Position numbers and translations under genes: made by a program. The notes beneath the pieces are model-generated. The model saw nothing but the letters and a program-made list of their open reading frames with translations, did no database searches and was not told where the DNA came from. Below are positions 18,959 through 49,775 of a DNA stretch of 64,000 bases, in pieces (positions within the stretch are counted from its first letter, which is position 1; every line of letters begins with the position of its first letter). The stretch is from an uncultured Acidobacteriota bacterium (GTDB lineage Bacteria; Acidobacteriota; Thermoanaerobaculia; Multivoradales; UBA5704): the NCBI GenBank assembly GCA_963700145.1, contig OY969474.1, forward strand, positions 4,928,001 through 4,992,000, written 5' to 3'.

Positions 18959-18961
18959 GGG

Positions 18962-26871: not shown

Positions 26872-26898
26872 CGCGCGACGGCTAAGCGACAACCGAGC

Positions 26899-30447: not shown

Positions 30448-30498
30448 CGGCGGCCCCCGGCCCGCGCTCTGATGGTCAGCGGGCTAGGGGGCACCTTT

Positions 30499-31734
30499 CT
30501 ATACGGCGGCCCCCTGACCGGCGCCGGACGCCGCCTCGAGCCGATCCTGCAACCGCTTGTCGGGGTCCTCGAACCGGAGGATGTAGAGATTCGAGAGCGT
30601 GGCGGGGAACGCGCTGACGACGCCGTTCATGCTCATCATCCCGCGGGCGCCGGCGAAGGCTCCGGTCCCCCCGCGGAGCGGCCCGAAGCCACCCATCCGG
30701 AACACCGGGTAAGGCGCGCCCGGCAGGTAGGTGCGAAAGGCGCGCCCCTCCATCATGTTCGCGGACACCGAGCCGAGACTCCGGCCTTGGGAATCGTGGA
30801 AGGTGAAGACGCCTTCGGTGGTCTGCGCGGTGGTGACGGTGAACTGGTTTGCGAAGCTGCAATGGAGCATCGCCGACGCGGTCCCCACGATCTCCCCCGA
30901 CTGGGTGCTGCTTTGCATGCTTTCGTAATCGAAACCGATCCGGACCAGACGAAGGCGCTCGAACACCTGGGCGCCGACCGGCGAGTTGCCGGGCGGCCCG
31001 TGGACCAGCTGGATCGGCCGGTGTGGATCGGCCTCGCCGAGGAAGAACATGAACACGCCGGAGCCGGCGGGCGTCTGGCCTGCTCGCACCAGCGGCGGGA
31101 CGGGCGCTTTGGCCGTGAGCTGGCCGTTTGGATCCATCACTCGCAGAATCAGGTTGAGGGCCAGCGAATTGGGAGGAGTGATGAAGCCGTTGATCACCAT
31201 CGTGGCCCCGGGGAGCGTCTCGTCCGACAGGCCGTAGAGGGCGCCGAACCCCCCCAGGACGTTGATCACGGCACCGATGTTGAGCGAGCCGAACGAGCCG
31301 GCGAGCGGGAACGTGCGGCCGGAGCCGAACGCTTGAATGCCGCTCACCCTCCGGTCATGGAAGCTGAGCTGCCCGTTGAGCATGGTGAACCGCTGCGAGG
31401 TGAAGGGGTTCAGGATCGTGGGCGGGGGGGAGACGCCGGGGCTCGGGGCGTAGCTCTCCGGGATCGGCGTCCAACGGATGTTGACGTTGGCGATGGTTTG
31501 GTCGCTGATCAGGTTGCTTGCGCTCAAGCCCTGCGGCCCCATCGTCGTCACGACTTCGAAGCGGTGGAGCTCTTCGTTGACGTTGACCGCGGTCAAGAGC
31601 AACTGTCCCAGGGTCTGCGTCGCGATCGGCAGCAGCGGCACCGGCTGATTCGGGATCGCGTCAGGGGCGTCACTGTGTTTGTTGAAGATCGGAAAGTAGG
31701 CGGCGCTCTCGAGCAGACGGGTCACTTCGTCCAT
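30499..31734 (-). CDS. hypothetical protein with two dirigent/AOC-like beta-barrel repeats
   Basis: GGTGAFAGARG motif. Full-length similarity to the C-terminal half of 35647-38073. Confidence 0.7.
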   Translation of the reverse strand: MDEVTRLLESAAYFPIFNKHSDAPDAIPNQPVPLLPIATQTLGQLLLTAVNVNEELHRFEVVTTMGPQGLSASNLISDQTIANVNIRWTPIPESYAPSPGVSPPPTILNPFTSQRFTMLNGQLSFHDRRVSGIQAFGSGRTFPLAGSFGSLNIGAVINVLGGFGALYGLSDETLPGATMVINGFITPPNSLALNLILRVMDPNGQLTAKAPVPPLVRAGQTPAGSGVFMFFLGEADPHRPIQLVHGPPGNSPVGAQVFERLRLVRIGFDYESMQSSTQSGEIVGTASAMLHCSFANQFTVTTAQTTEGVFTFHDSQGRSLGSVSANMMEGRAFRTYLPGAPYPVFRMGGFGPLRGGTGAFAGARGMMSMNGVVSAFPATLSNLYILRFEDPDKRLQDRLEAASGAGQGAAV

Positions 31735-31741
31735 TGCGTGC

Positions 31742-32134
31742 TCACTGTTGCCGGCTGGTCCTCGGTGGCTGGACGGGTCCCCATCCGAACAGGCCCTGCT
31801 GTTGTTGCCAGGCGGTGCCGGTCACCCAGTAGACCGTGTCGACCCCCAGTTGGAGGAGACCGAACGCCAGGTTCCCCACTTGGTTGAGCAGACCGGATGC
31901 GGTGCCGGCCGCCTCGGGGAGGCCGAACGCAGCGTCCACCACCGCTCTCTGCAGCCGGTCCCCGCTCTCGAAGGCCGAGCGCAACGTCGGCCCGAGCTGC
32001 CCTTCAGCGGAGCGGGCCACGGCGCCGAAGGCCGTCGCCGCCCGGGGCGGGGCGATCAGGTTGGTCATCTGTTCGACGCCGAGCAGGGACATGGCCCACG
32101 AGAAGCTCGCCAGGGATTCAGCCAACTCACGCAT
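31742..32134 (-). CDS. hypothetical 'SWAMSL' domain protein
   Basis: MRELAESLASFSWAMSLLG.. aligns with the N-termini of 38116-39870 and 42579-42995. GAGGAG RBS. Confidence 0.8.
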   Translation of the reverse strand: MRELAESLASFSWAMSLLGVEQMTNLIAPPRAATAFGAVARSAEGQLGPTLRSAFESGDRLQRAVVDAAFGLPEAAGTASGLLNQVGNLAFGLLQLGVDTVYWVTGTAWQQQQGLFGWGPVQPPRTSRQQ

Positions 32135-32150
32135 CGACGTCGCTCCTCTG

Positions 32151-33377
32151 CTAGAACTGTTCCGGAACCTCGGTCTCGAGGGTCTCGACGCCGGGGATGA
32201 TGCAGCCCTCCTGATAACAGTCGTGTAAGGAGGCGTCGCTGAACCCCTTGTAGATGAGCTCTTCGAGGTGTGTGGGGTCGAGGTTCAACATGCCCAACGC
32301 GCCGCCTCCGAGCTCTTCCCGGGGATGGAAGCGGTGGATGGTCACCGGGCGGTAACTGGTGAGTGACTTCAATCCGCCCAGCGCGAGGACGGCTCCCTTC
32401 CCCAGCCGCTCCAGCTCCAGCTCGGGCAGCGCCTCGCCGCGCCGCAGGCGATCGAAGGCCTCGAGCCCGCGGTTGATTCGGCGCGCCCGGTAGATCTCGC
32501 GATTGACCAGCGCCGCCCACGCAATGGTCTGCAGGCGATAGGACGTGGCAACCGTGCTGTCCAGGGTGCTGAGCGGGATGGAGGCGACGTCCGGATCGAG
32601 GTAGACGACGTAGATAACGTCGGCCTCGTTGAGCGCCGGGCGGAGCGGAGTATTGATCAGGACGCTGCCGTCCACGAAGGGCTCGGCGCCGACGAAGATC
32701 GGGGGCAGGACGCCGGGGACGGCGCTCGACGCCTGGATCGCCAGGGGGCCGAGGTTGTCCGACATGTCCCGGTTGCCGAAGCTCCTCACCCGTCCCGTCG
32801 TCCAGTTCGTAGCGAAAATCCGCAGCTTTCGCGTCGCTTCGGTGCGGCGAATGTTCGGGAAGTTGATGGTCTGCCGGATCGTCTCGCTCCACGGCGCGGT
32901 CGAGACGAAGACCGTGAAGTCGAACAGGTTGGCGACCCTCTCCCTCAGGCCCTCTTGCTCTCCGGTGGCGAGGTAGACCGCTCTCTGGATTCCCTCCCAG
33001 GTGAGATACGCGCTGTCGCGGCCCAGCTCGAGCAGCGGGCGCAGAGGGTTCGGCACGTAGGCCGTGGGATCCAGGAAGAGGCCAGGATCGCCGCGGAAGC
33101 GGTAGATGCCGTTGCGCGCAGGGTCGCCGGCCAGGGTGCCGAGCCACACGCGCTCGAGATTGGCGACCGCCGCCGGGCCGAACTCATCCCATTGCGAGAC
33201 CAGAAAGGCGGCGTTGTAGGAGCCGATCGACGTGCCGAAGAAGTGTCCCGGTTCGATCAGCCCGAGACCCTTGCACTTGCCGCTGAACAGCGCCTTGAGG
33301 ACGCCGACCTCGTAAGCTCCATTGGCGCCCCCGCCGGAGAGAACGATCGCCTGCCGCGGTGCGCTTGGGCCGTTCAC
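32151..33377 (-). CDS. patatin-like phospholipase
   Basis: LSGGGANG, GTSIG (GxSxG), ASSAVPG and FVDGS. Confidence 0.9.
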   Translation of the reverse strand: MNGPSAPRQAIVLSGGGANGAYEVGVLKALFSGKCKGLGLIEPGHFFGTSIGSYNAAFLVSQWDEFGPAAVANLERVWLGTLAGDPARNGIYRFRGDPGLFLDPTAYVPNPLRPLLELGRDSAYLTWEGIQRAVYLATGEQEGLRERVANLFDFTVFVSTAPWSETIRQTINFPNIRRTEATRKLRIFATNWTTGRVRSFGNRDMSDNLGPLAIQASSAVPGVLPPIFVGAEPFVDGSVLINTPLRPALNEADVIYVVYLDPDVASIPLSTLDSTVATSYRLQTIAWAALVNREIYRARRINRGLEAFDRLRRGEALPELELERLGKGAVLALGGLKSLTSYRPVTIHRFHPREELGGGALGMLNLDPTHLEELIYKGFSDASLHDCYQEGCIIPGVETLETEVPEQF

Positions 33378-33435
33378 CTCAACCCCCCGTCACGGCCGGA
33401 GAAGCTTCCATGGACGTGTCTCGTCCTCCTGCAGC

Positions 33436-34323
33436 TCAACGCCGGGGCCGGCTGCCGGTCGGCGCGGTGCCCTTGCCAGGCGCCGGGGCCTTGCCAGGGG
33501 CGGCTGTCTCGCCAGACGTCTGGGAGGCGCCGGCTCCGCCGCCGAAGTATGCTCCCACGCTGTGGACCAGCAGGTAGTCCGCCGATCGATAGTGCGGGTA
33601 CTCCCTAGCGATCCGGCCGATCGCCTCCTGCGCCGTTTTCGATGACTCGACCGCGGCGATGAAGAAGCAGATATAGGTCCGCAGCTCGTCGAAGATCGAG
33701 GTATCGACCGGGAACTCTCCGTGCCCCCCGAAAACGCTCCGGATCGACCGCCCTGTCGGTATCTCTTCGAGGTGACGGAGCCACATGCCGGGCTGCTTCC
33801 CCGTCAGGAACAGGTGGACACGGTTGTAGACCAGGTCGCCGGCGACGAGCGTTCTGGCGCGCGGGATGTAGAAAGCTGTCTGGTGGCTCGCTTCTCCTCC
33901 CGCGTACTGCAGGAGCTGGACCTCCTCCCTGTCGATCCTCAGGCTCGAATCCTGGCAGCTCTCGGGCACGACCAACTCTTCACAGGCCAGCGGTCCATAC
34001 TTTTGCTTCACCAGATCGAGCATGAAAGCGCCCTGCGCCGCGATCGTCGCCGCCACCTCCGGCGCCGCGAGGATCGGGGTGTGCCGAAATTCGTCCCGCA
34101 GGACCTGAAGCCCCCCGAAGTGATCGGGGTGAGGATGGGAGATGTAGATCTGCTTGAGCCGCCAGCCACCCTTCTTGATCAGGGCCGCAAGTTTCTGCGC
34201 CGCCGGCCTTATCACGTGTGCATCGACCAGCATGGCCTCCCGATCGCCCGCGATCAGGACTGCGTTCTCCAGGACGCCCGACTTCCCGTCCAGGTGGTGG
34301 ATCACGTTCAGTGTGAATGGCAT
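33436..34323 (-). CDS. metallo-beta-lactamase-fold hydrolase
   Basis: ISHPHPDHFGG (HxHxDH), AGDLVY and GGHG. GGAGG RBS before ATG 34323. Confidence 0.88.
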   Translation of the reverse strand: MPFTLNVIHHLDGKSGVLENAVLIAGDREAMLVDAHVIRPAAQKLAALIKKGGWRLKQIYISHPHPDHFGGLQVLRDEFRHTPILAAPEVAATIAAQGAFMLDLVKQKYGPLACEELVVPESCQDSSLRIDREEVQLLQYAGGEASHQTAFYIPRARTLVAGDLVYNRVHLFLTGKQPGMWLRHLEEIPTGRSIRSVFGGHGEFPVDTSIFDELRTYICFFIAAVESSKTAQEAIGRIAREYPHYRSADYLLVHSVGAYFGGGAGASQTSGETAAPGKAPAPGKGTAPTGSRPRR

Positions 34324-34363
34324 GTCTACCTCCATCCATCGGTTCTGGCTGCAGCGGTCCCCA

Positions 34364-35653
34364 TCACAATCCTCTTCCCGAGAGGACCCAGGCCGGCAGC
34401 TCAGGGCTGAGCCAATCCGGTACCTGCCGCCAGGTCATGAGCGAGCCGGTGATCAGCGTGTAATGTTGCATGAAGTGTTGGACCAGCATGTCTTTTTCTA
34501 GCTGCGCTCTCGAGATGCAGAGATCCTCGGCCGCGCGGCCCCCGGTGAGGGCGTTGACGAGATCGACGTAGCCGAAGAGCGGATCGAAGCCGGGCGCCGC
34601 GCGCGAGGTCTGTTGGAGCAGGGCATAAAAGGGGGCAAACACGCGCGAGGTGAGCCCGAGCGACACAAGGTTGGCGAGCTGAGCGCCCCAGGTGAAAGGA
34701 TCCAGGGGGACGTCGAGGATCTGCTGCGGCCGGTTGATGACGAACGTGAGGCAGACGCGGATCTCGCCACTGTCACGGATCTTGAAATCGATGAGCTGGA
34801 AACCGGGGCCGAAGCGGCCTGGGCCGTAGACGAGCGGGCCGCGGGCCAGGGGGTTGCGGAGCACCGCGTAGCCGAACCCGTACTCCGCGAGCAGCCCCGG
34901 CCCCGGGTCGTCGACGGCGCGGATGAACGGTTTCGCCAGGACGATCGGGGTCTCCTCGCTAAGCGGTATCGTGAGGTACGGCTGCTCACCACCGAACGGC
35001 CGGAAGGTCAAGGTGAAGTCGAAGATGCGGACGCTCGCGACGATCCATTCGTAGATCGGGCCGATCTCGCGCAAGTCCACGATGGCGCCTTGCTGCGCGG
35101 GCGGAAATTTGCCGACGCGCCCCGAGCGGCGCAGCTTGTAGAAGAGCTGCCGGTAGCCGAATCCCTGGCGGGTTTCCTCCGGCCGTGGGCACCAGCTCAG
35201 GCCTGGGATGTGGAGCCCCCGCCCCTCCCGGTTCTCGTCGACGAAGGCCTCCGGGGCGCGGTAGTCGCTGACGCGCATGAAGTAGCGCAGCACGAACGCA
35301 CGGAGCTGGTCGCGATAGACCATGGCCTCTGCCGCCTTCGGGCGGTCGTAGGACAGGTCCTGGAAGCATCCCATGACCGGCAGCTCCCGATCGCCGGGCA
35401 GCGTCGCCACGTCGAAGAAGCCGAAGCTCGTGTCGGCGGGGTTGAAGGTCCGCATGATCTGGAACTTGTCGCTGTATGCCCCGGCGCGGTCGACTGCCTC
35501 CCACCAGTGCTGCAGCGCCACGGCCTCGGCCACGGCCTGCTCGACACCGCCGAGCAGCGCCGAGTCGTCCTCCGTCAGCAGCCCGCCGGGCTGATCGAAT
35601 CCCGACGTCTGGTCGGTGGGAGGACCGATCGAAACCTGAGGCTCGCTCAACAC
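34364..35653 (-). CDS. hypothetical protein
   Basis: 429-aa ORF with coding-like composition, overlapping the upstream stop. No family recognised. Confidence 0.7.
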   Translation of the reverse strand: MLSEPQVSIGPPTDQTSGFDQPGGLLTEDDSALLGGVEQAVAEAVALQHWWEAVDRAGAYSDKFQIMRTFNPADTSFGFFDVATLPGDRELPVMGCFQDLSYDRPKAAEAMVYRDQLRAFVLRYFMRVSDYRAPEAFVDENREGRGLHIPGLSWCPRPEETRQGFGYRQLFYKLRRSGRVGKFPPAQQGAIVDLREIGPIYEWIVASVRIFDFTLTFRPFGGEQPYLTIPLSEETPIVLAKPFIRAVDDPGPGLLAEYGFGYAVLRNPLARGPLVYGPGRFGPGFQLIDFKIRDSGEIRVCLTFVINRPQQILDVPLDPFTWGAQLANLVSLGLTSRVFAPFYALLQQTSRAAPGFDPLFGYVDLVNALTGGRAAEDLCISRAQLEKDMLVQHFMQHYTLITGSLMTWRQVPDWLSPELPAWVLSGRGL

Positions 35654-38073
35654 CAGGCGCTCGCTAGAGCGTCCCCGAACCGGCCGTCGGGATCGGAGAC
35701 GCGCAACACGTACAGGTTCGAAAGCGTCCGCGGAAAGACGCTGATGGCAGCGTTGAGAGACATCATGCCGACGGCGCCGCTGAACTGGCCGGTGCCCGAA
35801 ATGAAAGGCCCGAAGCCGCCGAAGCGGAACACCGGCATCGGCGCGCCGGGGAGCTGGGCCGGGAAGGCGCGGCCTTCGACGATGTCGGCGGTTAGCGTAC
35901 CGATGGTCCCGCCATGGCCGTCGAAGAACTGGAACACGCCGTTGCGCGTCTGGAAGGGGATGGGCGGTTGCAGCCCCGGCGCGAATGGGTTGAAGAGGAG
36001 CTGGCCGTCGAGCCTGCCGACGAGAGTCCCGACGCTCGTCTTGGCAAGCGGCGCCCGGCGGCCTGTGGCCGCCGAGTCGAGGTGGACCAGACGCAGAAGC
36101 TCGTGTACCGAAGCCCCTTGCATCTGGCCGCCCGGGCCGGAGATCGTGGTAGTGGGCTCATCGTCGTTCTCCTCGCCGAGGAAGGTGAGGAACGTCGTGC
36201 CCGGATCGGGGTCCGGGATCGGCACGAGCGCAGGCAGATCCGAGGTGGTGAGCAGATCGCCCGAGGGGTCGAGGACGCGCAGCATGATGTTGAGAGCGAG
36301 GCCGCTGGGGGGCGTGATGTAGCCGTTGACCACCACCGTCCCCTGGTGGTTCTTGAGCTTGCCATAGCCCTCGAGGATGTCGATGACCGCGCCGATGCGG
36401 AGCTGTGGCTGGCCATTGATGCGCATCGGGAAGGTGCGACCGGTCCCGAAGCCGTGAAAACCGCTGTGGCTGGCGTCGTCGAACCTGAACTCGCCGTCGA
36501 GAAAGGTGAAGCGCTGCGAGCGGGTCGGATCGAGGGGTGTCGGCGGCGGATCGCCGTTCGGATTCGCCACGTAGTCGTCGGGGATGGGTCGCCAGATGAT
36601 GTGTACCTTGGCCGCCGGCAGCCCGACGACATTCGCGGCCCGCAGCCCGCGCTCGGCGGTCGGCCGGGCCATCCGCACGTCGAAGCGGTGCAGGTTCTCG
36701 TGGACGTGGACCCCGATCATCTGGCCGTTGGCGATGATCGGCACGTTCGGCTCGGCGCTGTTGGGCATGGAGAAGAACGAGAAGTACGCGGCCCGCCGGA
36801 GCAGGTGCTGCACCACCTGCAGCTTGTAGCTCTCGGGATTGACCCCCGGCGGGAACGTAGGTGGCAGAGGCGGCATTCCGGGCGGCGGGCCCGGCGGCAT
36901 CCCGGCCGCTGCCGCCGCCGCGGGCGGGCCGGCGGGCGCACTGGCGACGGTCGGCGGAGAAGGAGCGCCGCCCGGGCTGCTCGGGCCGCCGGCGGCCGCC
37001 GCAGGGGGACCCTGGGGGATCGGCGCCTGGTTCTGCTTGCGGACGACCCGGAAGACGTCGAAGGTCTTGGCCGGGAACACGGTGTTCGGACCGAAGGGCG
37101 CGCCCGGGGCGAGCTGACCGGAACCGACGGCGCTCTTGACTCCGGAGGCTCCTTCGTACCTGCCCGTGCCGCCGGTGATGATCCCCATGGCGGTGGTCAT
37201 GAAGATCATCGAGCCGTCCGCGAGCGGCGCCAGGAACGCCTGGCTGGCACCGATGGCTGTGATCGAGTCCTCGTCGTTGAACTTCCACGTGGACTTGTAG
37301 TAGCCGCCGATTGGCAGCTGGGGGATCCCTCCGGGCTGGTCGATGGGCATCGACGGCATCGGGGGCTTCGTCATTAGCTGCTGCGGCGTCGCTGCGCCGA
37401 CCGCTGCCTGGATGCCCTCGTAGGAGCCTCCCGGCTGGCCGTCGGGTGTGAAGGTATCGATGCGCAGGATGATGTAGCGGGGATCCTCCAGGATGTAGCC
37501 GTTGCCGGCGCCGTAGCGGATGAGCACCTCTTCGCCCTGGACCCCGGGGTCGGTGACCGCCGGCGAGACCACCCGTCCGCCACCGGTCCGTGGCGACCGC
37601 CCGAAGGTCTCCGGTAGGACGCCGAGCTGCTGCAGCACGTACGCCCGGTCCCAGCCGATCCACGACTCCGCGCGCTTGCCGTTCTCCAGGAACCGGTTGA
37701 AGGCGAGCCCGTGGTACACGAAGGGCAAGTCCGTCGGCGGCAGGCCCATGAATCCGTTGGTCCGCGTGCCCTGGCTGGTGAAGCGCACCACGGTGAAGTT
37801 GTCCTTGGCGATCGCTTGGTCCACCGTGAAGCGGATGTCGGAAAAAGCCTTGAAGAACCCCTCCAGCGCCGCCTGGGCGTTCTCGGCGCCTTCGATTTTG
37901 CCGCCGGGCAAGGTATCGGTGAACCACTGGTAGTCGGGGGTCACCCCGGCGACGAAACCGCTGGCGTCGTGAGCGTTGAAGTTGACCCACCCCTTCAGCG
38001 TCGCCTGCAGATTGCGCTCTTCTGCCTCCTGCCGCCGCTGTTCGCTCGTCATGATCGCCTGTTCGCTCGTCAT
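35647..38073 (-). CDS. SnoaL-like (ester cyclase) domain + dirigent/AOC-like barrels, multidomain protein
   Basis: NAHD..FFKAFSDIRF..GTRTNGFMGLPPT..QQLG (SnoaL), TGGTGRYEGASG, a Pro-rich linker, then a region paralogous to 30499-31734. Confidence 0.75.
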   Translation of the reverse strand: MTSEQAIMTSEQRRQEAEERNLQATLKGWVNFNAHDASGFVAGVTPDYQWFTDTLPGGKIEGAENAQAALEGFFKAFSDIRFTVDQAIAKDNFTVVRFTSQGTRTNGFMGLPPTDLPFVYHGLAFNRFLENGKRAESWIGWDRAYVLQQLGVLPETFGRSPRTGGGRVVSPAVTDPGVQGEEVLIRYGAGNGYILEDPRYIILRIDTFTPDGQPGGSYEGIQAAVGAATPQQLMTKPPMPSMPIDQPGGIPQLPIGGYYKSTWKFNDEDSITAIGASQAFLAPLADGSMIFMTTAMGIITGGTGRYEGASGVKSAVGSGQLAPGAPFGPNTVFPAKTFDVFRVVRKQNQAPIPQGPPAAAAGGPSSPGGAPSPPTVASAPAGPPAAAAAAGMPPGPPPGMPPLPPTFPPGVNPESYKLQVVQHLLRRAAYFSFFSMPNSAEPNVPIIANGQMIGVHVHENLHRFDVRMARPTAERGLRAANVVGLPAAKVHIIWRPIPDDYVANPNGDPPPTPLDPTRSQRFTFLDGEFRFDDASHSGFHGFGTGRTFPMRINGQPQLRIGAVIDILEGYGKLKNHQGTVVVNGYITPPSGLALNIMLRVLDPSGDLLTTSDLPALVPIPDPDPGTTFLTFLGEENDDEPTTTISGPGGQMQGASVHELLRLVHLDSAATGRRAPLAKTSVGTLVGRLDGQLLFNPFAPGLQPPIPFQTRNGVFQFFDGHGGTIGTLTADIVEGRAFPAQLPGAPMPVFRFGGFGPFISGTGQFSGAVGMMSLNAAISVFPRTLSNLYVLRVSDPDGRFGDALASAWC

Positions 38074-38115
38074 GATCGTCTCCTTGATCGAGGTCTCGAG
38101 GACGCTCTCCCCGCT

Positions 38116-39870
38116 TCAGCGGGCCGGCGAGCCGGTCCGTACCGCCGGAAGGTTGCGATACCACTCCGCCATTGCCGTGCCAACGAGGTACGGATTCGTC
38201 TCATGCGGGTAGTGCAGGCCGGGCCCAACGTTGACGGAGACCAGATTCTTCAGGTTCTGCTGCAGCCAGCGGACGCTGTCGGAGGTGATGATCATCCCCG
38301 GCACGACATAGATGAGGAGCTTCGGCAGGTCGGTCCCGACGAGCCAGGGAATGTACCCGTCGACGATCCGGGCCACGGCAGCGGGCTGACCTTCGATCGG
38401 GATCTCGTTGACCCAGCGCCAGATGACCTCGCGGTTGACCTTCTCGCGGTACGGCAGGCGCGTCCATTCCATCTCTTCCTGGGTGACCGCCCGCCCCATG
38501 ATGCTGGGAGTCAGCACCTCAATGAAGATGTTCTGGTCGACGATCGCCTTGTAGCCGAAGCTGTCCTTGCTTGGATACCCCTCGCGGAAGAGGCGGAAGT
38601 TCTCGCGCACGAACTGGGGCGCGTCCGGCTCGGGGAACGTGCTCCACTGCGGATAGCTCTTGTACACCGCTTCCATGAAGATGAGGCCACGCACGTTGTC
38701 GGGATGACGGCTGGCGTAGTCGAAGCCGATGGCCGACCCCCAGTCGTGCATGACGAGAGTGATGTTGCGCAGTCCCTTCCGCGAGATGAAGCTCTCGATG
38801 AACTGGATGTGATCCTGGAAGCCGAAGCTGGCGTCCTCGGGTTTGGAGCCCGGTCCCATGCCGATCAAGTCCGGCGAATAGCAGCAGCCGAGCCCGACGA
38901 GGTGGGGAAAGATGTTGCGCCAGGTGTAGGACCAGTTCGGGTTGCCGTGGAGGAACACGAAGGGCTCTCCGGACCCGGCTTCGACGTAGCTCATCTCGAA
39001 GCCCTTGCCGCCGGGGCCTTGCACGTCGATGGTCTGGAGCTGGTAATTCCAGGCGGCCGAGGGGAACTCGACGTCGGCTTGCCGGACGAGCCGGAACGTC
39101 GCGACGGCGTCGCATCGCAGCTCCGCGCCCGGAGCGAACGGCGCGCCGCTGGGGAGGATGCCCCGCCCCAGGAAGGTGGCGCCGCCGAGCAGGCCGCTGT
39201 AGCGGCCGGAGCCGCCCGCGACATTGCCGGCTACCGAGAGGAGGAAGACGCTGGGGCCCTCCTGGTAGCGGGCGAGATTGAGGAGAGCCGGCCCGGAGAA
39301 GCCGACGGAGCCGCCGTCGGAGCTGCCCCAGGTCGCCGCGGCCTGAGCCCGGACCGTCGTGGGGCTCGTCGTGTGGTTGGATGCCCAGGCGTCGTGAAAA
39401 GGCTGCGCCGGCAGGTCGTACCAGGAGTACCACCGGTTGGCGTTCTCCGGCTCGTTCAGGTACGAGACGTCGAACACCACTCGGAGGTCACCGCCGGACT
39501 TCGACTCGAAAACGATCCTGCCGTCCTGGCCGAACTGCAGTGTGCCCTCGCCGGAGAAGGCGAGCGCCGAGTCACCCCCGTCGTCCAGTCCGTGCACCCC
39601 GCTCGCGGCGGCACCGCCCGGCGCGGCCCACAGCCGTGGATCGAAGACCCCGAACATGGTGTCCACCAAGCGCCTTTGCAGCTCGTCGCCGGCATGGAAC
39701 GCATCCGCGAAGAGCCCCTCGAGCTGAGCCTTGGCGGCCCGCGTCACCGCGTCGAGCGATGCCCCGCCGCCGCCGAGGTTTCGCGGGTCCACCAACGAAG
39801 CGAGCTGCCGGGCACCGAAGAGCGACATGGCCCACGAATAGCTGAGCAAAGACTTCGTCAGGTCACGCAT
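38116..39870 (-). CDS. SWAMSL domain + AOC-like barrel + haloalkane-dehalogenase-family hydrolase fusion
   Basis: FLHGNPNWSYTWRN, PDLIGMG, HDWGS, FMEA and GLHYPHE. The middle domain has GGSGRYSGLLG. Confidence 0.82.
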   Translation of the reverse strand: MRDLTKSLLSYSWAMSLFGARQLASLVDPRNLGGGGASLDAVTRAAKAQLEGLFADAFHAGDELQRRLVDTMFGVFDPRLWAAPGGAAASGVHGLDDGGDSALAFSGEGTLQFGQDGRIVFESKSGGDLRVVFDVSYLNEPENANRWYSWYDLPAQPFHDAWASNHTTSPTTVRAQAAATWGSSDGGSVGFSGPALLNLARYQEGPSVFLLSVAGNVAGGSGRYSGLLGGATFLGRGILPSGAPFAPGAELRCDAVATFRLVRQADVEFPSAAWNYQLQTIDVQGPGGKGFEMSYVEAGSGEPFVFLHGNPNWSYTWRNIFPHLVGLGCCYSPDLIGMGPGSKPEDASFGFQDHIQFIESFISRKGLRNITLVMHDWGSAIGFDYASRHPDNVRGLIFMEAVYKSYPQWSTFPEPDAPQFVRENFRLFREGYPSKDSFGYKAIVDQNIFIEVLTPSIMGRAVTQEEMEWTRLPYREKVNREVIWRWVNEIPIEGQPAAVARIVDGYIPWLVGTDLPKLLIYVVPGMIITSDSVRWLQQNLKNLVSVNVGPGLHYPHETNPYLVGTAMAEWYRNLPAVRTGSPAR

Positions 39871-40023
39871 GGCAGAAACCCCTCTTCGCCGGCCTGTGCC
39901 AGCCCAGCGCCTCGCACCCCCGTGCCTCCAGTGGGCGACACAGCGGTCCTGTACGCCGCGAAGCGCGTCCCGGCCCGGGGCCTGGCGCCTCGCGGCGCAT
40001 CCGGCCTTCCGGAAGACGGCGGC

Positions 40024-40656
40024 TTAGGTCGCCGCTGCGCCGGCCTCGCCACCGCCGCGCCGGCCTCGTCCTCCTCCACCGGTCGTCTCGGCGCTCTCGC
40101 CGCCTTCGCGCCCCTTCTCCAAGCAGACGCAGTCCGCGATCCGCTCGAGGGCCGCGAGCTGCCGCGACTCGAAATGCAGGTCCTGCTTGGCCCAACGGTC
40201 CAGGACGTTGTAGTAGACCCGGATGTACATGGCGTCACCAAGCGGGACGGCGTCGCAGCCGTACTTGCGCACGATCCAAGCGGTGAATCCATCCGGCGTG
40301 AGATTGTCCGTGACGAGGTCTTCGCCCTGCGTGAAAACCTGCTCGCCGTCGCGCTTGACGCTGACGAGGCTCCACTGGACGAGCTTCACCATGTCGTCGC
40401 TCAGGTTCCTGTCTCCCATCTTCCTTTCCTCCTTGCGTGTAGAAAGACTGCTCGGTTCCAACCGACGGTTTCCTTCTGCTTCGACAAAGCCTTCACCCGG
40501 CGTCGTGCCGGGATAAGGATCGATCGAGTTCCGCATCCCGCTCATGGTCAGCTCGGCCTGCCGCTCCATGTTCTGCACCGCCCGTGCGATCGCCTCGAGT
40601 CCGTTGGCGAACATCATGAACGGCATCAGCAACAGACGACCGAAGAGCTCCAGCAT
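40024..40656 (-). CDS. hypothetical protein with probable internal start at 40419
   Basis: 210-aa [18 protein letters not shown] precedes the internal ATG (MGDRNLSDDMVKLV). Confidence 0.7.
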   Translation of the reverse strand: MLELFGRLLLMPFMMFANGLEAIARAVQNMERQAELTMSGMRNSIDPYPGTTPGEGFVEAEGNRRLEPSSLSTRKEERKMGDRNLSDDMVKLVQWSLVSVKRDGEQVFTQGEDLVTDNLTPDGFTAWIVRKYGCDAVPLGDAMYIRVYYNVLDRWAKQDLHFESRQLAALERIADCVCLEKGREGGESAETTGGGGRGRRGGGEAGAAAT

Positions 40657-40722
40657 CTCAACCGCTCCCCAGGCGTCTGCCCGCCCAAGGAGCCTTCGTC
40701 ACCTGCCGGAAGAGCTCGAACA

Positions 40723-42393
40723 TCACCCATCTCCGCGAGCGCTCCGGCGGCGCCCGCTCCCTAATCTCCATAGCAACAACCCGCCGAATAGCAGGGCGAC
40801 CGCCGCCCCGGCCGGCTGAGCCCAGGCGAGCCCCGCGCCCGCGAGCTGCCGCACGAGGAGCGTCAGCGCCGCGACCGCGGCGACGAACGCCGCGACCAGC
40901 AAGGTCGCGCCTCGCTCGTCGCCGCGCTCGGGACGGCCGACGTAGCTTGCCGGCTGCCGCGTGCCGTCCGCGGCGCGGGTGAGCGCTTCGTCGAGGTGCC
41001 GTGGGAGCTCGGCCATCAGCACCGCGTAGCGCTCCAAGCTCTCGCGCATCTCGGTCAGCGTCATCATGTCGCGGAGCTGCCCGGCGGTGGTCAGCAGCCG
41101 CACCTCCTGCAGGGCTTCGGCCAGCGCGTCCTGCTCCGGCGCCAGCCGGCGGGCCGCCGCGGCGACCGCGAACAGGCCGCGGTAGAAGGCGACCAGGTGG
41201 GCGCGCGGCCGGTAGCCGCACGCGCGCGCCAGACGCCAGTGCACGAAGAGGTGCTCGGCGAGGCTGTCGCCGCTCGCGCTCCAGGCGCCGTCGCGGAAAG
41301 GGACCACTTGGCGCAGGCGGAGGCGGACCTGCTTCTCGCCGGCGGCCGTGGCGCCGGTCATCTCCCGCAACAGGTAGGTGCACGCCCGGTCGGGATCGCG
41401 CTCCGAGGCCGCGATCAGGTAGCCCCAGAGGTGGCTCTGGGAGAGCGCGGTAGGCGCCGCGAACGGCCCGCCGGTGAAGGCGATGCGGCCTTCCGCGAGC
41501 ACCACGAGCCCGGCGATCGGCTCGACCGGGAACGAAGGGCCCCGCAACGCCCGGTAAAGCCAGGCGATCGCCACCCGCCGTGCCATGCTCAAGCGGTCCT
41601 GGCGCTCGAGGAGAGCGGAGCCCGGCTTCGCGTAGCCGGGCTGCAGCGCTTCGTCCAGAGGCACTCCCCCGACCCACTCGAGGGTGATCGCCTTGGGGCG
41701 CGCGAGCTCCCGCACGACCCGCGGGGTCGAGATCAGGTCCAAGCGGCCCGCATCGGTGGCCAGGGCGTCCAGCGCCGCCGCCTGCGCCGCGAGGTCGAGC
41801 ATGTCGGGCAGAGCCTGGCGGAAGTCGTCCACGGCCACCGCCAGCGGGCGATCGAGCGCCTCGCCGGGGCCCGGGACGTCGGCGAGCAGGTCGAGCAGCT
41901 CCAGGTCCGGCTCGAGCCACGCCTCCAGCCCCGGCCGCACCACCCGCACCAGGACCGGCTCGCCGTTGCGCAGCGTCGCGCGGTGCGCCTGGACGAGGAG
42001 GCGCGACTCGAACGGCGCCTCGTCGAGCTCGGCGTAGAGGTCGCGCGGTTCACGCCCCAGCTCGGCCGCGAGGCGCTCGAGGACGGCGCCGGCCGGCGCC
42101 GGCTGCGCGCGGTCTGGCAGCGCCGCCAGCTCGACGCAGTCGGCGACCGGCAGCAGGTCGGGGCGCGAGCCGAGATAGACCGCGAAGGACGAGAAGACCG
42201 GCCCCAGCCGCTCGAGCGCTCCGCGCAGGCGGCGGCCGAAGCCTCCGTCCTGCGCCGCCGCCGTCGCGGGCCGGGGATCCAGGCCGCGCGGCCCGCCGAA
42301 CAGCTCGCACTCGGCGAAGCAGCGCTGGACCTCCTGCCGGCGCCGCTGCCGCTCGCCGAGCGGCGGCCGCACGCGATCCGCTCGGCTCCTCAT
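40723..42393 (-). CDS. ABC1/UbiB-family pseudokinase
   Basis: LERLGPVF..RPDLLP..L.DR scaffold, but the KxxQ, AxAS, VxK, HxD and DFG equivalents are degenerate. Two C-terminal TM helices. Confidence 0.75.
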   Translation of the reverse strand: MRSRADRVRPPLGERQRRRQEVQRCFAECELFGGPRGLDPRPATAAAQDGGFGRRLRGALERLGPVFSSFAVYLGSRPDLLPVADCVELAALPDRAQPAPAGAVLERLAAELGREPRDLYAELDEAPFESRLLVQAHRATLRNGEPVLVRVVRPGLEAWLEPDLELLDLLADVPGPGEALDRPLAVAVDDFRQALPDMLDLAAQAAALDALATDAGRLDLISTPRVVRELARPKAITLEWVGGVPLDEALQPGYAKPGSALLERQDRLSMARRVAIAWLYRALRGPSFPVEPIAGLVVLAEGRIAFTGGPFAAPTALSQSHLWGYLIAASERDPDRACTYLLREMTGATAAGEKQVRLRLRQVVPFRDGAWSASGDSLAEHLFVHWRLARACGYRPRAHLVAFYRGLFAVAAAARRLAPEQDALAEALQEVRLLTTAGQLRDMMTLTEMRESLERYAVLMAELPRHLDEALTRAADGTRQPASYVGRPERGDERGATLLVAAFVAAVAALTLLVRQLAGAGLAWAQPAGAAVALLFGGLLLWRLGSGRRRSARGDG

Positions 42394-42542
42394 CGCGCCG
42401 CTCGCCGCCGCGCTGCCCGCGCCGGCAGCGGCTGGTACTCGAACACCGAGCCCAGCCTGTTCTCGCGCTTGAGCATGGGATACCAGACCTCGATCGCCAG
42501 CGTCGCCGTCGACGCCCTCCAGCTCGGCAGCGTGTTGTCGCA
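42390..42542 (-). pseudogene. orphan 3' gene fragment
   Basis: Reads CDNTLPSWRASTATLAIEVWYPMLKRENRLGSVFEYQPLP.. with coding-like codons and ends in an ATGA overlap with the pseudokinase. In-frame TAA upstream and no start at its 5' end. Confidence 0.45.
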
Positions 42543-42578
42543 AGAACGTTACCATGATCCAGGGCTGCCGCAGCTCCG

Positions 42579-42995
42579 CTATGCACCGGGCGCGGGGATC
42601 GGCCCCCAGCCCGACTGCGGCTGCGGCGCGGAGGGCACGGCCTGGGTGGAGCGCTGCATCAGGTCGACGCCGGCCTGCGCGGTCTGGCAGATTGCGTCGG
42701 CGCCGGTGCGCATCGCGCCGGTGGCGCCGGGGGCCCAGGCGGCTGGGTTCCAGGTGCCGCCGGAGCCGATCATCCCGAACATCATGTCGACCATCCCCTT
42801 CTGCATGCTGTCGCCAGCCCGGTACAGCGACCGCAGCGTCTGCCCGAGTTGCCCCTCGGTTGTGCTGGACACCCCGTTCAACGAAGAGGCGGCCTGGCCC
42901 CAGGTCTGCGGCATCAGCAGGTTGGCCGCCTGCTTCAAGCCGAACAGTGACATCGCCCACGAGAAGCTCATCATCGACTTCGTCAGTTCGCGCAA
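42579..42995 (-). CDS. hypothetical 'SWAMSL' domain protein
   Basis: MRELTKSMMSFSWAMSLFG..GDSMQKGMVDMMFG..GWGP. AAGGAG RBS before TTG. Confidence 0.8.
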   Translation of the reverse strand: MRELTKSMMSFSWAMSLFGLKQAANLLMPQTWGQAASSLNGVSSTTEGQLGQTLRSLYRAGDSMQKGMVDMMFGMIGSGGTWNPAAWAPGATGAMRTGADAICQTAQAGVDLMQRSTQAVPSAPQPQSGWGPIPAPGA

Positions 42996-43031: not shown

Positions 43032-44699
43032 TCAGGCGAGCCTGAGCATGATTCGGAACAGCATCGCCAGAGCGGCGCCGGCCAGCACGGCCTCCGCCGT
43101 GAACAGGTTGATCCCGGGCTCGGCGGGTCCCCCCGCCACCAGCATCAGCAGCGACAGTGCGCAGGCCGTGACGGCGAGCTGGAGCGCCCGCTGGCGCGAC
43201 TCTCGATGGGACGCCGGGGCGGACCGCGGTACTTCGGCCGCGCCGGGCGGCCCGTCGGCGGCGAACTGCTCCAGGGCTTTCGCCGCCCGAAACGCTCCGT
43301 CGCGGAGCAACCGGGCGCTGGCGCCGGTCCAGTCGATGAGCCGGTCCTCGGCCACCAGCCGCTGCCACCCCTCCCGCCGCAGGTTGCGCTCGCAGACCTC
43401 GGCGAGGTAGGCGCCGACGTCGAACCCGGGCGCGAAGCGGGTGATGAGGCCGTCGATGGCGATGGCCGAGCGGATGTACTTGATGACGTCCCGCTCCGGC
43501 CAGATGCCGGTGGTGCGCGACAGCCGCAGCATGTCGAGCATCACCAGGGTGAAGTTCTTGCGCAGCTTGCGCTGCTTGCCGCGCTGCTCGTACCAGGCCT
43601 CGGCGAAGCGGTCGAGACCGGCGCGGAAGGCGGCGACGTCCGCGCCGGTGTCGAGAGTGGAGACCTTGAGGAAGGCGGTGCACATCCCGTCGAGGTCGCC
43701 GCGCGTGTAGGCCAGGGTCATGGTGATCAGATGACCGCGGGAGTATTGGCTGAGCACGCCGGTGATGCCGAAGTCGACGTAGCCGACGACGTTGCCGGGC
43801 TGGATCAGCAGGTTCGCCGGATGCAGGTCGGCGTGGAAGATGCCGTGGCGGAAGGCGTCGCCCAGGAAGTTGTCGATCATGTGGCGGCCGAACCGGTCGG
43901 GCTCGAAGCCGGCGGCGGCGAGCCGCCGCGGCAGCAGCTCCTCGCCGCTCTCCAGCGCCCGCAGGTAGTCGAGCACGGTGACGCCTTCGAGGAACTCGAC
44001 CGTCAACACCCGCGGCGTGGTGAGCTCGACGACCAGCTCCGGCACCCGCTCGTGGGGGTTGTCCTGCGCGTTGACCCGCAGCCGCTCCATGTAGCGGGCC
44101 TCGTTGCGGTAGTCGAGCTCCTCCAGAGTCCAGGCCACGAACTCGCTCATCGGCTCGATCACCCACTCGAGCCGGCGGATGCGGAAGCGGCGGATCGCCC
44201 CGACCATCGCGCTCATCAGCCGGATGTCGCCGGCGAAGTCGGTGACGACGATCGGCCGCTGCACCTTGACGGCGAGCTTGCGGCCGCCGCGCCAGGCGAC
44301 GTGCACCTGGCCGATCGATGCGGTAGCCAGGGGCTGCCGCTCGAAGACGTCGAAGAGCTCGTCGGGGCCGCGCCCCAGGTCGGCGCGCACCACCGCCTCG
44401 ACCTCCGCGTACGGGAACGGCGCCACCCGGTCGAGCAGGTCGAAGAGGGCGTTGCAGTACTCCAGCGACAGGATGTCGGGCTGCAGCGCCAGCATCTGGC
44501 CGAACTTGATGAAGGTGCCGCCGAGGTCCTCCAGCAGAGCGGCGAAGCGCCGCGGGCCGGGGAGGTCCCCCGGCGGCAGCCGCCGGGCGAGCGCCGGCCA
44601 GCGCGCCAGCCGCGGGCCGAGCGCGTGCGCCACGCCGTGCGCCGCGAGCACGCGCAGGATGTTCCCGAGCCGGCGGAGGTTGGCGGCGGCGGTCCTCAC
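43032..44699 (-). CDS. ABC1/UbiB/AarF-family kinase
   Basis: LGGTFIKFGQ, LATASIGQVH, AVKVQRP, FHADLHPAN and VDFG. Confidence 0.92.
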   Translation of the reverse strand: MRTAAANLRRLGNILRVLAAHGVAHALGPRLARWPALARRLPPGDLPGPRRFAALLEDLGGTFIKFGQMLALQPDILSLEYCNALFDLLDRVAPFPYAEVEAVVRADLGRGPDELFDVFERQPLATASIGQVHVAWRGGRKLAVKVQRPIVVTDFAGDIRLMSAMVGAIRRFRIRRLEWVIEPMSEFVAWTLEELDYRNEARYMERLRVNAQDNPHERVPELVVELTTPRVLTVEFLEGVTVLDYLRALESGEELLPRRLAAAGFEPDRFGRHMIDNFLGDAFRHGIFHADLHPANLLIQPGNVVGYVDFGITGVLSQYSRGHLITMTLAYTRGDLDGMCTAFLKVSTLDTGADVAAFRAGLDRFAEAWYEQRGKQRKLRKNFTLVMLDMLRLSRTTGIWPERDVIKYIRSAIAIDGLITRFAPGFDVGAYLAEVCERNLRREGWQRLVAEDRLIDWTGASARLLRDGAFRAAKALEQFAADGPPGAAEVPRSAPASHRESRQRALQLAVTACALSLLMLVAGGPAEPGINLFTAEAVLAGAALAMLFRIMLRLA

Positions 44700-46357: not shown

Positions 46358-46374
46358 GCTCCTTCGGCTCCTCG

Positions 46375-47958: not shown

Positions 47959-47995
47959 TGGAGAGAACCGCCTCCGCGGGGGAGGGAGCGCCGCA

Positions 47996-49219: not shown

Positions 49220-49262
49220 GCTCAGACCTCCGCCCCGTCCCCCGCGAGGGCCACGCGCCCTT

Positions 49263-49766: not shown

Positions 49767-49775
49767 TTTATAACA
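49767..49775 (-). promoter_or_regulatory. putative extended -10 promoter element for the ACP1 operon
   Basis: TGTTATAAA on the minus strand in an AT-rich patch about 230 nt upstream of ACP1. Confidence 0.4.

Follow-up and report, generated by a model that had tools for sequence, protein, structure and literature searches.

A helical N-terminal domain common to small proteins and enzymes of an acidobacterial lipid-related gene cluster: a candidate docking tag beside an ABC1/UbiB-type pair

We analyzed a 64,000-nucleotide stretch of DNA from an uncultured Acidobacteriota bacterium (the window) and found three minus-strand genes whose products have in common a helical domain of about 75 amino acids starting at Met1, called the tag here and 'SWAMSL' in the first-pass annotation. 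The first gene (31742-32134) encodes a small stand-alone protein of 130 aa, with the N-domain at 31901-32134 and a GWGPVQ motif at residues 117-122 (31769-31786). The second (38116-39870) encodes a 584-aa fusion in which the tag (residues 1 to about 78, 39631-39870) is followed by a middle region of about 200 aa that includes a GGSGRYSG motif; residues 289-574 (38149-39006) then form an alpha/beta hydrolase of the haloalkane-dehalogenase type. The third (42579-42995, TTG start) encodes another stand-alone protein, 138 aa long, in which a low-complexity linker connects the N-domain (residues 1 to about 78, 42756-42995) to a GWGPIP motif at residues 129-134 (42594-42611). Each gene starts at the first start codon past a stop, with a Shine-Dalgarno-like GAGGAG, AAGGAG or GAGGGG 8-13 nt to its 5' side. 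The first-pass annotation had reported three copies of the domain, a GWGP motif with a Pro-rich tail on both stand-alone forms and a dehalogenase-like fused enzyme, and the data bore this out: all three copies lie where it had placed them, the stand-alone C-termini are GWGPVQPPRTSRQQ and GWGPIPAPGA, and the enzyme matched NCBIfam NF002938 (E 7.8e-88) at 294.6 bits, where the cut-off is 241.

In a MAFFT alignment, the other two copies shared 44% and 41% identity with copy 1 (41-44% pairwise), and 31 columns, nearly all within residues 1-71, were invariant. A profile of the three copies, searched against the whole 5.46-Mb genome, recovered them at E values of 6e-74, 1e-61 and 2e-48, with no fourth match below E 0.07. 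Judged by these sequence comparisons, the likeness of the copies is far beyond chance.

The tag genes belong to a minus-strand cluster. ABC1a (43032-44987; it may instead begin at about 44699) encodes an ABC1/UbiB-family kinase-like protein (Pfam ABC1, E 5.4e-53) in which KxGQ, an A-rich loop, VAVKVQRP, HADLHP and DFG are all legible and two hydrophobic helices lie at the C-terminus; against NCBIfam UbiB it scored 227 bits, under the equivalog cut-off of 487. ABC1b (40723-42393) encodes an ABC1-like protein that is matched by the N-terminal half of the ABC1 profile only, with FSSFAV in place of KxGQ and VLVRVVRP in place of the catalytic-Lys motif; it too has two C-terminal hydrophobic helices, together with a conserved LRQxVPFRDGAWS motif. 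By these motifs, ABC1a is apparently an active kinase; ABC1b, in which neither KxGQ nor the catalytic Lys survives, is a pseudokinase. The 138-aa tag gene is placed between the two, and directly upstream of ABC1a is p565 (44696-46393, start uncertain), a 565-aa protein that contains a PlsC-type acyltransferase domain and matches DAGAT in part. The first reading had left the ABC1/UbiB pair beside the tag unremarked.

Next to ABC1b, p210 (40024-40656) encodes a 210-aa uncharacterised protein, present in six of eight related loci, whose hydrophobic N-terminal helix is connected by a linker to a conserved C-domain of about 100 aa (DDMVKLVxYSIVS). Beyond the dehalogenase fusion are an 808-aa protein (35647-38073) with a SnoaL-like domain, a middle domain in common with that fusion and a C-terminal half paralogous to p411; the uncharacterised 429-aa p429 (34364-35653), with tblastn matches in seven of the eight loci at up to three copies per locus; an MBL-fold metallo-hydrolase of 299 aa (33436-34335); and a 408-aa patatin-like phospholipase (32151-33377; Pfam Patatin, E 2e-25), found in one to four copies in related loci. 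The 130-aa tag gene follows, directly upstream of the uncharacterised 411-aa p411 (30499-31734; one to three copies in related loci), and its closest counterparts in genomes G010 and G019 likewise adjoin a p411 homolog. The paralog numbers of patatin, p429 and p411 differ among close relatives, and GC3 is 0.81-0.89 at 30.5-40.7 kb compared with 0.93-0.98 in the flanks.

We searched the tag domain against Pfam, NCBIfam, PADLOC and PDB sequences and obtained no match; at the level of sequence it is a previously undescribed family. The tag profile finds 988 representative clusters in the database, mostly from Acidobacteriota where the source gives a taxon, and of the best 150 of these, 143 are matched from residues 1-3 onward and none from later than residue 25. 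Across 224 N-domains, R2, K6, S7, W13, G19, Q22, P29, G61, D62, Q65 and D70 are conserved at 92-99%, and T5, S7, S10, S12 and S16 of helix 1 at 70-94%. The conserved residues of helix 1 cluster on one helix face. GWG occurs inside the last 20 residues of 69 of 145 small database representatives, and the small homologs of distant genomes are acidic, largely helical-looking proteins of 120-144 aa without GWGP.

An AlphaFold2 model of the 138-aa protein showed helices at residues 2-27 and 29-77, with pLDDT of 70-81 over residues 1-30 and 41-70 and 69 over residues 31-40; because the global confidence of this monomer model was low (pTM 0.31), the hairpin arrangement is uncertain. In the model of a 444-aa fusion the body was confident (pTM 0.79, most 10-residue blocks with pLDDT above 90) and residues 1-60 were under pLDDT 50. 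The tag is thus modeled as helix 1 (residues 2-27), the conserved Pro29 and more helix to about residue 77. Structure comparison returned an Esx pair at Z 5.1, a generic helical-hairpin resemblance within noise. The first-pass description of the domain as amphipathic-helical applies in part: it is helical and strongly amphipathic at residues ~46-72 (muH ~0.6), but helix 1 (residues 1-27) is moderately hydrophobic (KD ~0.7) with a low hydrophobic moment (muH 0.1-0.35).

The first-pass annotation had proposed building an HMM from the three copies and listing the enzymes fused to it. This HMM detected 31 tag carriers in nine related loci, every one matching from residue 1. Fifteen are small stand-alone forms of 93-189 aa, nine of which end in GWG[P/K] and four more in GW- or GP-type variants; the 16 fusions comprise eight proteins of 430-521 aa, three dehalogenase fusions of 584-632 aa and five proteins of 1129-1173 aa. 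The fusion bodies are the haloalkane-dehalogenase-type hydrolase, a weakly GDSL-like protein of about 1150 aa, an all-alpha family of about 450 aa and one further family, so that the carriers show at least five architectures and at least four unrelated protein bodies. In a Pfam scan of 13 long carriers, Abhydrolase_1 was found in one and Lipase_GDSL_2 in three of the five ~1150-aa proteins, weakly and under the cut-off (E ~1e-3), and the seven scanned carriers of 430-521 aa had no Pfam match. The linkers between tag and enzyme bodies are low-complexity and Gly/Pro/Ala-rich, and in the database protein P0210 the tag is joined directly to the hydrolase, the middle domain being absent. These comparisons support the view that the tag behaves as a portable N-terminal module, although its N-terminal position is perhaps a by-product of fusion origin and not a functional requirement, because a small tag gene sits upstream of enzyme genes.

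The order p565 - ABC1a - small tag - ABC1b was found, with small variations, in all eight related loci and also in the distant loci G033, G233 and G401; in G386b, p565, ABC1a and the small tag are present together. Of 41 relatives, 16 encode a full-length ABC1b ortholog, and precisely these 16 carry the tag, though this co-occurrence overstates independence because the relatives are kin. Both are, however, patchy within genera (for example two of four genomes in g1, two of three in g3 and one of two in g5). In 15 of the 16 genomes no more than about 4 kb separates the ABC1b ortholog from a tag gene; in G016 the distance to the nearest tag gene is less than about 1.5 kb. A counterpoint is that in some distant genomes (G386, G072) the tagged 450-aa gene lies outside the 20-kb stretch around the ABC1 locus. 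By gene neighborhood, the tightest partner of the tag is this kinase and pseudokinase pair, predicted to be membrane-anchored.

The tag had been read at first as a phasin/apolipoprotein-like coat or scaffold subunit of a lipid body that also acts as a targeting tag. The coat part was unsupported. The tag proteins matched no phasin, apolipoprotein or perilipin model (best Phasin_2 E 0.13, in one distant homolog), and the genome search gave no PhaC_N match, with the positive-control genome matched, no Phasin_2 and, in a search run without a positive control, no WS/DGAT. Moreover, conservation peaks mainly at polar residues and glycines (R2, K6, S7, Q22, G19, G61, D62, Q65, D70), which indicates a specific fold or binding site and not a generic amphipathic coat, and the constant partner is the ABC1 pair. 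The targeting part fared better, as portability, N-terminal position, linkers and gene context agree, all of it comparative evidence. Because the tag occurs alone or fused to varied lipid-cutting enzymes, with the UbiB-type pair adjacent in every cluster examined, a shared docking or localisation function is likelier for it than a role as coat of fat droplets.

We give an even chance to the idea that the proteins of one conserved, lipid-related acidobacterial cluster use the tag as a shared handle for docking or localisation. The tag would bring its carriers, the dehalogenase-type alpha/beta hydrolase, the weakly GDSL-like 1150-aa protein and the all-alpha 450-aa protein, to one place, which from the gene neighborhood would most likely be the membrane-proximal ABC1a/ABC1b pair or its membrane patch. 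If the carriers do dock at one site, lipid-active enzymes would be concentrated and co-regulated there. The small stand-alone forms may be adaptors or competitors whose N-domain fills the same putative site. Past a disordered linker they carry, close to the C-terminus, a GWG[P]-type short linear motif that may bind a second partner, possibly an untagged enzyme of the cluster.

The main rival, possible but on balance unlikely, is that the tag binds lipid directly at a membrane interface via helix 1, as an interfacial helix bundle on a membrane or on a neutral- or ether-lipid particle made by the neighboring lipid genes; stand-alone copies would coat the surface and fused copies carry hydrolases there, with no protein receptor needed. 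In its favor, helix 1 combines a basic start with the invariant Trp and a run of hydrophobic residues, and residues 46-72 form a strongly amphipathic segment. The cargo and neighbors (patatin, alpha/beta hydrolase, weakly GDSL-like protein, acyltransferase with a partial DAGAT match) fit as well, and so do the acidic, helical-looking distant homologs. In plants, small helical proteins, the plastoglobule fibrillins, coat plastoglobules and occur together with ABC1-family kinases (ABC1K). However, the failed searches for coat models and PHA genes, conservation at polar and glycine positions that is unusual for coat proteins, and the low hydrophobic moment of helix 1 tell against it, and three copies per genome give no hint of coat-like high abundance.

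Given the run of conserved Thr and Ser in helix 1 (T5, S7, S10, S12, S16) and the adjacent, apparently active ABC1 kinase, it is reasonable to entertain phospho-control of docking as a sub-hypothesis. This switch is speculative because, to our knowledge, UbiB-family proteins are not established as protein kinases acting on other proteins. Taken further, helix 1 could itself be the substrate or recognition element of ABC1a, with one kinase switching potentially dangerous lipases and localisation being secondary. The intact kinase motifs of ABC1a next to the degenerate ABC1b and the strict co-occurrence of tag and ABC1b are consistent with this, but phosphorylation in trans by the UbiB family is disputed, the serines are perhaps just small residues for helix packing, and the cluster proteins scanned contain no phospho-binding module; we consider the proposal decidedly unlikely.

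It is highly unlikely that the tag marks lipase-type effectors and small partners for an unrecognised secretion route, comparable with PE/PPE, WXG100/LXG or MIX. A helical module of ~75-100 aa at the N-terminus, standing by itself or joined to lipolytic enzymes, the variable paralog numbers, the lower GC3 and the hairpin resemblance to an Esx pair would suit such a signal. Against it, the 27 window proteins scanned include no secretion machinery, the T6SS sheath gene is absent from the genome (the control matched), no WXG100 or PE/PPE match was obtained in Pfam, the tag is constantly accompanied by cytoplasm-facing ABC1 proteins and an acyltransferase, and helix 1 has no Sec-like h-region (KD ~0.7 in 18-residue windows and, by hand sum, about 1.3 over the 13 most hydrophobic residues). 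A RiPP-like precursor, with the N-domain of the small proteins as leader and the GWGPMP region as core peptide to be modified, would account for a conserved N-terminal region, a variable linker and a short C-terminal motif, but is hardly credible given that the same domain fronts large enzymes, that no RiPP maturase family was found among the scanned cluster proteins and that the C-terminal motif is conserved and not hypervariable.

Several known systems resemble the proposed docking tag in part. Type VII substrates (PE/PPE and WXG100/LXG, e.g. PE-lipase) likewise have a helical N-terminal domain of up to about 100 residues, alone or on enzymes including lipases, with several paralogs per locus; the tag differs in having no Pfam match, a cluster without secretion machinery, a diderm phylum and a structural resemblance that is only a generic helical hairpin (Z about 5). 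A second group, made up of phasins, perilipins and plastoglobule fibrillins, likewise consists of small helical proteins that accompany lipid enzymes and, in plants, ABC1K kinases; the tag differs in having no phasin-model match, no PHA synthase found in its genome and conservation centred on polar positions. UbiJ and UbiK, as described in PMC10470549, are small helical factors that associate with lipids and have no enzymatic activity; ubiquinone synthesis requires them beside a UbiB-family protein, and they are proposed to organise several hydrophobic-substrate enzymes into one complex; a small helical factor beside a UbiB-family protein with a proposed enzyme-organising role is the likeness here. 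The tag proteins have no SCP2 (UbiJ) or UbiK-type sequence match, the Ubi enzymes carry no covalent tag, and the tag cluster encodes hydrolases and an acyltransferase, not quinone-modifying enzymes, with ABC1a under the UbiB cut-off. The encapsulation peptides of bacterial microcompartments (BMC) and the cargo-loading peptides of encapsulins are likewise short terminal helical elements, found on several different enzymes of one cluster, connected by a poorly conserved linker and thought to gather enzymes in one place. BMC shell and encapsulin genes were not found in the genome (zero matches each, controls matched), and, unlike a helix of ~18 aa or a peptide of ~10 aa, the tag is a multi-helix domain of ~75 aa that also stands alone and whose constant partners are ABC1/UbiB-type proteins.

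The first-pass annotation had described a domain of about 80 aa that occurs three times, twice stand-alone and once fused to an enzyme, and this was confirmed by the ORF listing, an alignment and a genome-wide profile search. The ORF listing placed a protein of 130 aa at 31742-32134, a dehalogenase fusion of 584 aa at 38116-39870 and a protein of 138 aa, with a TTG start, at 42579-42995, all on the minus strand. We refer to the shared N-terminal module of about 75 aa ('SWAMSL') as the tag, and to the stand-alone proteins as small tags. In the alignment, the copy at 31742-32134 was 44% and 41% identical to the other two, and 31 columns were invariant across all three, nearly all of them inside residues 1-71. 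A profile of the three copies picked out just these three genes in the single-contig genome of 5.46 Mb (E 6e-74, 1e-61 and 2e-48), the next-best matches being at E 0.07 and 0.24. In every copy the start is the earliest start codon past a stop, with a Shine-Dalgarno-like motif upstream. Reading the sequences bore out that both small tags end in GWGP and a Pro-rich tail. The fused enzyme, annotated as dehalogenase-like, proved to carry a haloalkane-dehalogenase-type domain: residues 289-574 scored 294.6 bits against the curated cut-off of 241 of the NCBIfam equivalog NF002938, and HGNP, HDWG, FMEA and GLHYPHE, which we take to be the haloalkane dehalogenase catalytic motifs, are legible in its sequence.

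We then asked whether the tag belongs to a known family. Neither Pfam nor NCBIfam matched the small tags or the first ~280 residues of the dehalogenase fusion, and 30 N-domains scanned singly against Pfam at E ≤ 10 gave scattered noise only. A profile of these 30 N-domains (A2) found nothing below E 0.7 among all PDB sequences, and PDB sequence searches with A2, with the cluster proteins p429, p411 and p210 and with the profile A5 found nothing under E 0.1. In these searches the tag matched no known family. PADLOC returned nothing for the tag and only weak generic phospholipase and kinase matches, so that no defence system was recognised. ESM Atlas matches to a small tag were unnamed clusters only, commonest in Acidobacteriota; p429 gave no usable match there. 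A literature search with the motif strings SWAMSL, FSWAMS and GWGPMP, supplementary files being outside its scope, found no paper describing the domain, and among the titles and abstracts listed nothing relevant linked ABC1/UbiB with patatin, bacterial lipid droplets or Acidobacteriota.

The family is sizeable. Against 1.84 billion representatives, A2 matched 988 clusters at E ≤ 1e-3, of which 686 passed E ≤ 1e-10, and among the best 150 representatives the match began at residues 1-3 in 143, the latest start being residue 25. By their source labels the relatives come from Thermoanaerobaculia, 'Holophagales' and Pyrinomonadaceae, with single matches labelled Gemmataceae, Entotheonellia and 'Deltaproteobacteria'. 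The distribution is patchy: the tag was present in 16 of 41 close relatives but in only 10 of the 401 genomes of a phylum-wide sample, for which no more than 14 candidates per genome were scored. Tags grouped by ortholog class and not by genome, so that no concerted evolution within a genome was seen in a tree with 14 of its 28 inner branches unresolved.

The first-pass annotation had also proposed that an HMM of the three copies would list enzymes with an N-terminal fusion. Scanning all stop-to-stop frames of the window and eight related loci with an HMM built from the three copies yielded 31 carriers of at least five architectures, and the domain began at residue 1 in each. They comprised 15 small proteins (93-189 aa), three dehalogenase fusions (584-632 aa), five proteins of 1129-1173 aa and eight of 430-521 aa, the last covering two unrelated families, one of them all-alpha ('FWHGVGR'). 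The linkers after the tag are of low complexity and rich in Gly, Pro and Ala. A Pfam scan of 13 long carriers found Abhydrolase_1 in one; weak Lipase_GDSL_2 matches, below the cut-off, appeared in three of the five ~1150-aa carriers, and the seven mid-sized carriers scanned (430-521 aa) had no Pfam match. In a word-indexed database, where sensitivity was low, a search for fused forms by region gave three proteins and a 'longer' search gave 18. One match, P0210, is a tag-hydrolase fusion that lacks the middle domain, and further matches were fragments of carrier classes already found in the loci. P0218 (957 aa), a candidate Rosetta stone joining tag and ABC1, was rejected as a run-on ORF because Arg-rich wrong-frame stretches lie between its ABC1a C-terminus and an internal MRELTKS.

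The middle of the dehalogenase fusion (39001-39630), the cluster protein p411 (30499-31734) and the C-terminal half of the 808-aa SnoaL-containing protein (35647-36900) have a GG(T/S)G.(F/Y).G-type motif in common and show partial homology. Their GGTGxFxGAxG-type motif suggested a possible dirigent/allene-oxide-cyclase-like barrel; Pfam gave nothing at E ≤ 5, and the likeness was rejected.

AlphaFold2 modelled the 138-aa small tag, with 45 homologs, as two helices (residues 2-27 and 29-77) with a pTM of just 0.31. Its pLDDT was 69-81 in 10-residue blocks across residues 1-70; the linker was disordered, and pLDDT came back up to 69 in the final block, where GWGP lies. In the model of a 444-aa carrier the body was predicted confidently, at a pTM of 0.79 and with pLDDT above 90 in most blocks, whereas residues 1-60 were below pLDDT 50 and the tag was not packed against the body. 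We take this to mean that the tag is an appended module rather than part of the predicted enzyme fold. With the stand-alone model Foldseek found no match in the PDB at E ≤ 10, and a wide VIA-align search reached Z 4.8 at best, all with long coiled coils at an rmsd of 16-27 Å; because of the pTM of 0.31, these fold searches allow no conclusion. When the 444-aa carrier was searched whole, the best Foldseek E was 0.13 and its ARM/importin-like rows had a TM of ~0.18, and VIA-align gave at best Z 5.8, nearly all rows being confined to residues 1-78. An Esx pair stood there at Z 5.1 amid many generic helical hairpins, in a part of the model below pLDDT 50, and every VIA-align row fell below the noise level for helical models (Z 8-13).

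Across 224 N-domains, R2, K6, S7, W13, G19, Q22, P29, G61, D62, Q65 and D70 were 92-99% conserved, the values at positions 1-7 being biased because these sequences were chosen from 249 by an N-terminal pattern. The conserved residues of helix 1 sit on one face. Invariant glycines that occur in pairs, together with the basic and the acidic residues, would suit an antiparallel hairpin. A complex prediction of the small-tag N-domain (residues 1-85) with that of the dehalogenase fusion, run without controls, gave a score of 0.00, which speaks neither for nor against an interaction.

We next examined the gene cluster around the tags. All genes are on the minus strand and, in the direction of reading, follow the order p565 (a PlsC-type acyltransferase-domain protein), ABC1a (an ABC1/UbiB-family kinase-like protein), the 138-aa tag, ABC1b (an ABC1-like protein), p210, the tagged dehalogenase, the 808-aa SnoaL-containing protein, p429, an MBL hydrolase, a patatin lipase, the 130-aa tag and p411. 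ABC1a matched the Pfam ABC1 domain at E 5e-53 (180 bits, cut-off 22.9) and scored 227.2 bits with the UbiB equivalog TIGR01982, below its cut-off of 487.55; judged by these profiles it belongs to the ABC1 family of Pfam and is at most a putative UbiB ortholog. In ABC1b (40723-42393, minus strand) the ABC1 profile match is limited to the first 158 of 244 positions. Aligned with ABC1a, it has FSSFAV in place of KxGQ and VLVRVVRP in place of the catalytic-Lys motif, and both were lost in nine of nine aligned ABC1b orthologs. Since these losses are kept, ABC1b is a pseudokinase, and a conserved subfamily of ABC1/UbiB. The nine share the motif LRQxVPFRDGAWS, of which VPFRDG is invariant and new. 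Two hydrophobic helices, read directly from the sequences, end both ABC1a and ABC1b.

A tblastn search with the cluster proteins recovered the same gene set in much the same order in eight related loci, with 1-4 copies of the patatin per locus, up to three of p429, 1-3 of p411 and at least one tagged enzyme. A small tag lies between or beside ABC1a and ABC1b in all eight, and also in the distant G033, G233, G386b and G401. Of the 41 relatives, exactly the 16 with the tag had a full-length ABC1b ortholog, and in 15 of these a tag gene lay no more than ~4 kb from it; in G016 the distance to the nearest tag gene was under ~1.5 kb. The 25 relatives that lack the tag gave only weaker ABC1b matches, which we take to be other ABC1 paralogs. 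These genomes are kin, yet presence is patchy within genera. In distant Acidobacteriota the core is shrunken to an HMG-CoA-reductase-like gene, a CrtI-family oxidoreductase, p565, ABC1a, one or more small tags lacking GWGP, and ABC1b. A second, apparently decayed core copy was seen at G019:C2:3997-7535, with the ABC1b match in three pieces and an internal TGA in the tag match.

Of 145 small representatives, 69 have the C-terminal GWG motif, as do nine of the 15 small forms of the nine loci. It is missing from the small tags of the distant minimal loci G033, G386b and G401, and the stretches fetched there held no hydrolase match, a loose correlation between the two absences. As a short linear motif, GWG is a candidate for binding a second partner.

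The neighbouring genes were also analyzed. Directly upstream of the cluster lies a lipid/polyketide-like gene set (46375-58201, minus strand) with two HMG-CoA-reductase-like genes (E 1e-100 or better), two ACPs, two ketoacyl synthases, an RPE65/lignostilbene-type dioxygenase, a CrtI-family oxidoreductase and a flavin enzyme. Even in distant Acidobacteriota, ABC1a keeps its linkage to p565 and to the HMGR-like and the CrtI-like gene. Partly on the basis of a preprint (bioRxiv 10.64898/2026.06.23.733905), p565 may be one half (reductase-acyltransferase) of a split ElbD ether-lipid enzyme. The p210 family (40024-40656, minus strand; homologs in the related loci L017, L020, L021, L026, L027 and L028) has an N-terminal hydrophobic helix (M.ELF..L..LP...) resembling helix 1 of the tag in style, after which come a disordered linker and a conserved domain of ~100 aa. 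GC is high across the window (0.63-0.76 in 2-kb steps); at 30000-40700, GC is 0.66-0.69 against 0.71-0.76 in the flanks, and GC3 is 0.81-0.89 against 0.93-0.98, which may reflect a different history or expression level of the hydrolase part of the cluster. Four FG-GAP/ASPIC(UnbV) repeat proteins, one with TPRs, lie at 19246-29358 on the minus strand, and homologs also stand beside the cluster in G036, G033, G013 and G010. Transposase/integrase-like ORF fragments and a PIN-like/AbrB-like gene pair, a possible toxin-antitoxin, were seen by eye in translations at 14747-17526 and 18560-19249.

The tag had been proposed to be both a shared targeting tag and a lipid-body coat. The first half gained support from context: the carriers and their neighbourhood suggest a portable handle at the N-terminus, for docking or localisation, that is tied to the ABC1 pair. 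This fits better than a coat because the tag has no phasin likeness and because PhaC, Phasin_2, a BMC shell, an encapsulin and a T6SS sheath were not found in the genome. The main rival is direct binding of membranes by the tag. Of the amphipathic helices seen at first, residues 46-72 are strongly amphipathic, whereas helix 1 has a low moment and moderate hydrophobicity. The coat half found no support in the searches. The Phasin_2 (PF09361) and Phasin (PF05597) models did not match the three window copies at E ≤ 0.01, nor did any of the 30 N-domains match a phasin model at E ≤ 10; Phasin_2 appeared in one of four distant small homologs, at E 0.13 and 12.9 bits against a cut-off of 24.9. The tag's own genome (95% complete) had no match to PhaC_N, which the positive control found in Caulobacter, and none to Phasin_2, and WS/DGAT was not found in a search run without a positive control. 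As for a shell or sheath subunit, BMC-H (PF00936) and encapsulin (PF04454) had no match in this genome, with positive controls, and no T6SS sheath gene was found in it.

The docking handle could be refined, speculatively, by a phospho-switch worked by ABC1a. In its full form, which we consider unlikely, the tag would be the client handle of the ABC1a/ABC1b pair: the two membrane-anchored proteins would bind the N-terminal hairpin of defined lipid hydrolases and of small GWGP-tailed adaptors, ABC1a would phosphorylate the bound hairpin, and binding and phosphorylation would gate the time and place of membrane or ether-type lipid remodelling. If true, it would give the first defined protein-client set and a recognition code for any UbiB/ABC1 member.

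UbiB/ABC1 proteins occur from bacteria to mitochondria and plastids and are linked to lipid and quinone handling. The target of their action is still unclear, as an excerpt of one paper puts it: 'its exact role remains elusive' (PMC10470549). Here, an unannotated domain family of 988 representative clusters is genetically locked to an ABC1 kinase/pseudokinase pair. The lipid-type enzymes that carry it are few enough to enumerate, and they make up a list of candidate clients that is concrete and can be tested. A handle of ~75 residues can be deleted, swapped and used as bait. The analysis also flags a conserved acidobacterial cluster of 20-30 kb in which most core proteins (p210, p411, p429 and the ~450-aa and ~1150-aa carriers) lack a family assignment. 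If the tag is a portable localisation signal, it would be usable for protein targeting in these hard-to-study soil bacteria.

Among known systems, phasins differ in that the tag matches no phasin family model and its genome has no PHA synthase match, and WXG100/PE-PPE proteins in that none stood among the Pfam matches at E ≤ 10 for the 30 N-domains. The encapsulation peptides of BMCs and the cargo-loading peptides of encapsulins are alike in placing a terminal helical element and a linker on several enzymes per locus, but no shell protein gene was found in the tag's genome. Although no tag copy matched SCP2 (UbiJ) or the UbiK family in Pfam or NCBIfam, the small tag resembles the accessory factors UbiJ and UbiK in that its gene is linked to a UbiB/ABC1-family gene.
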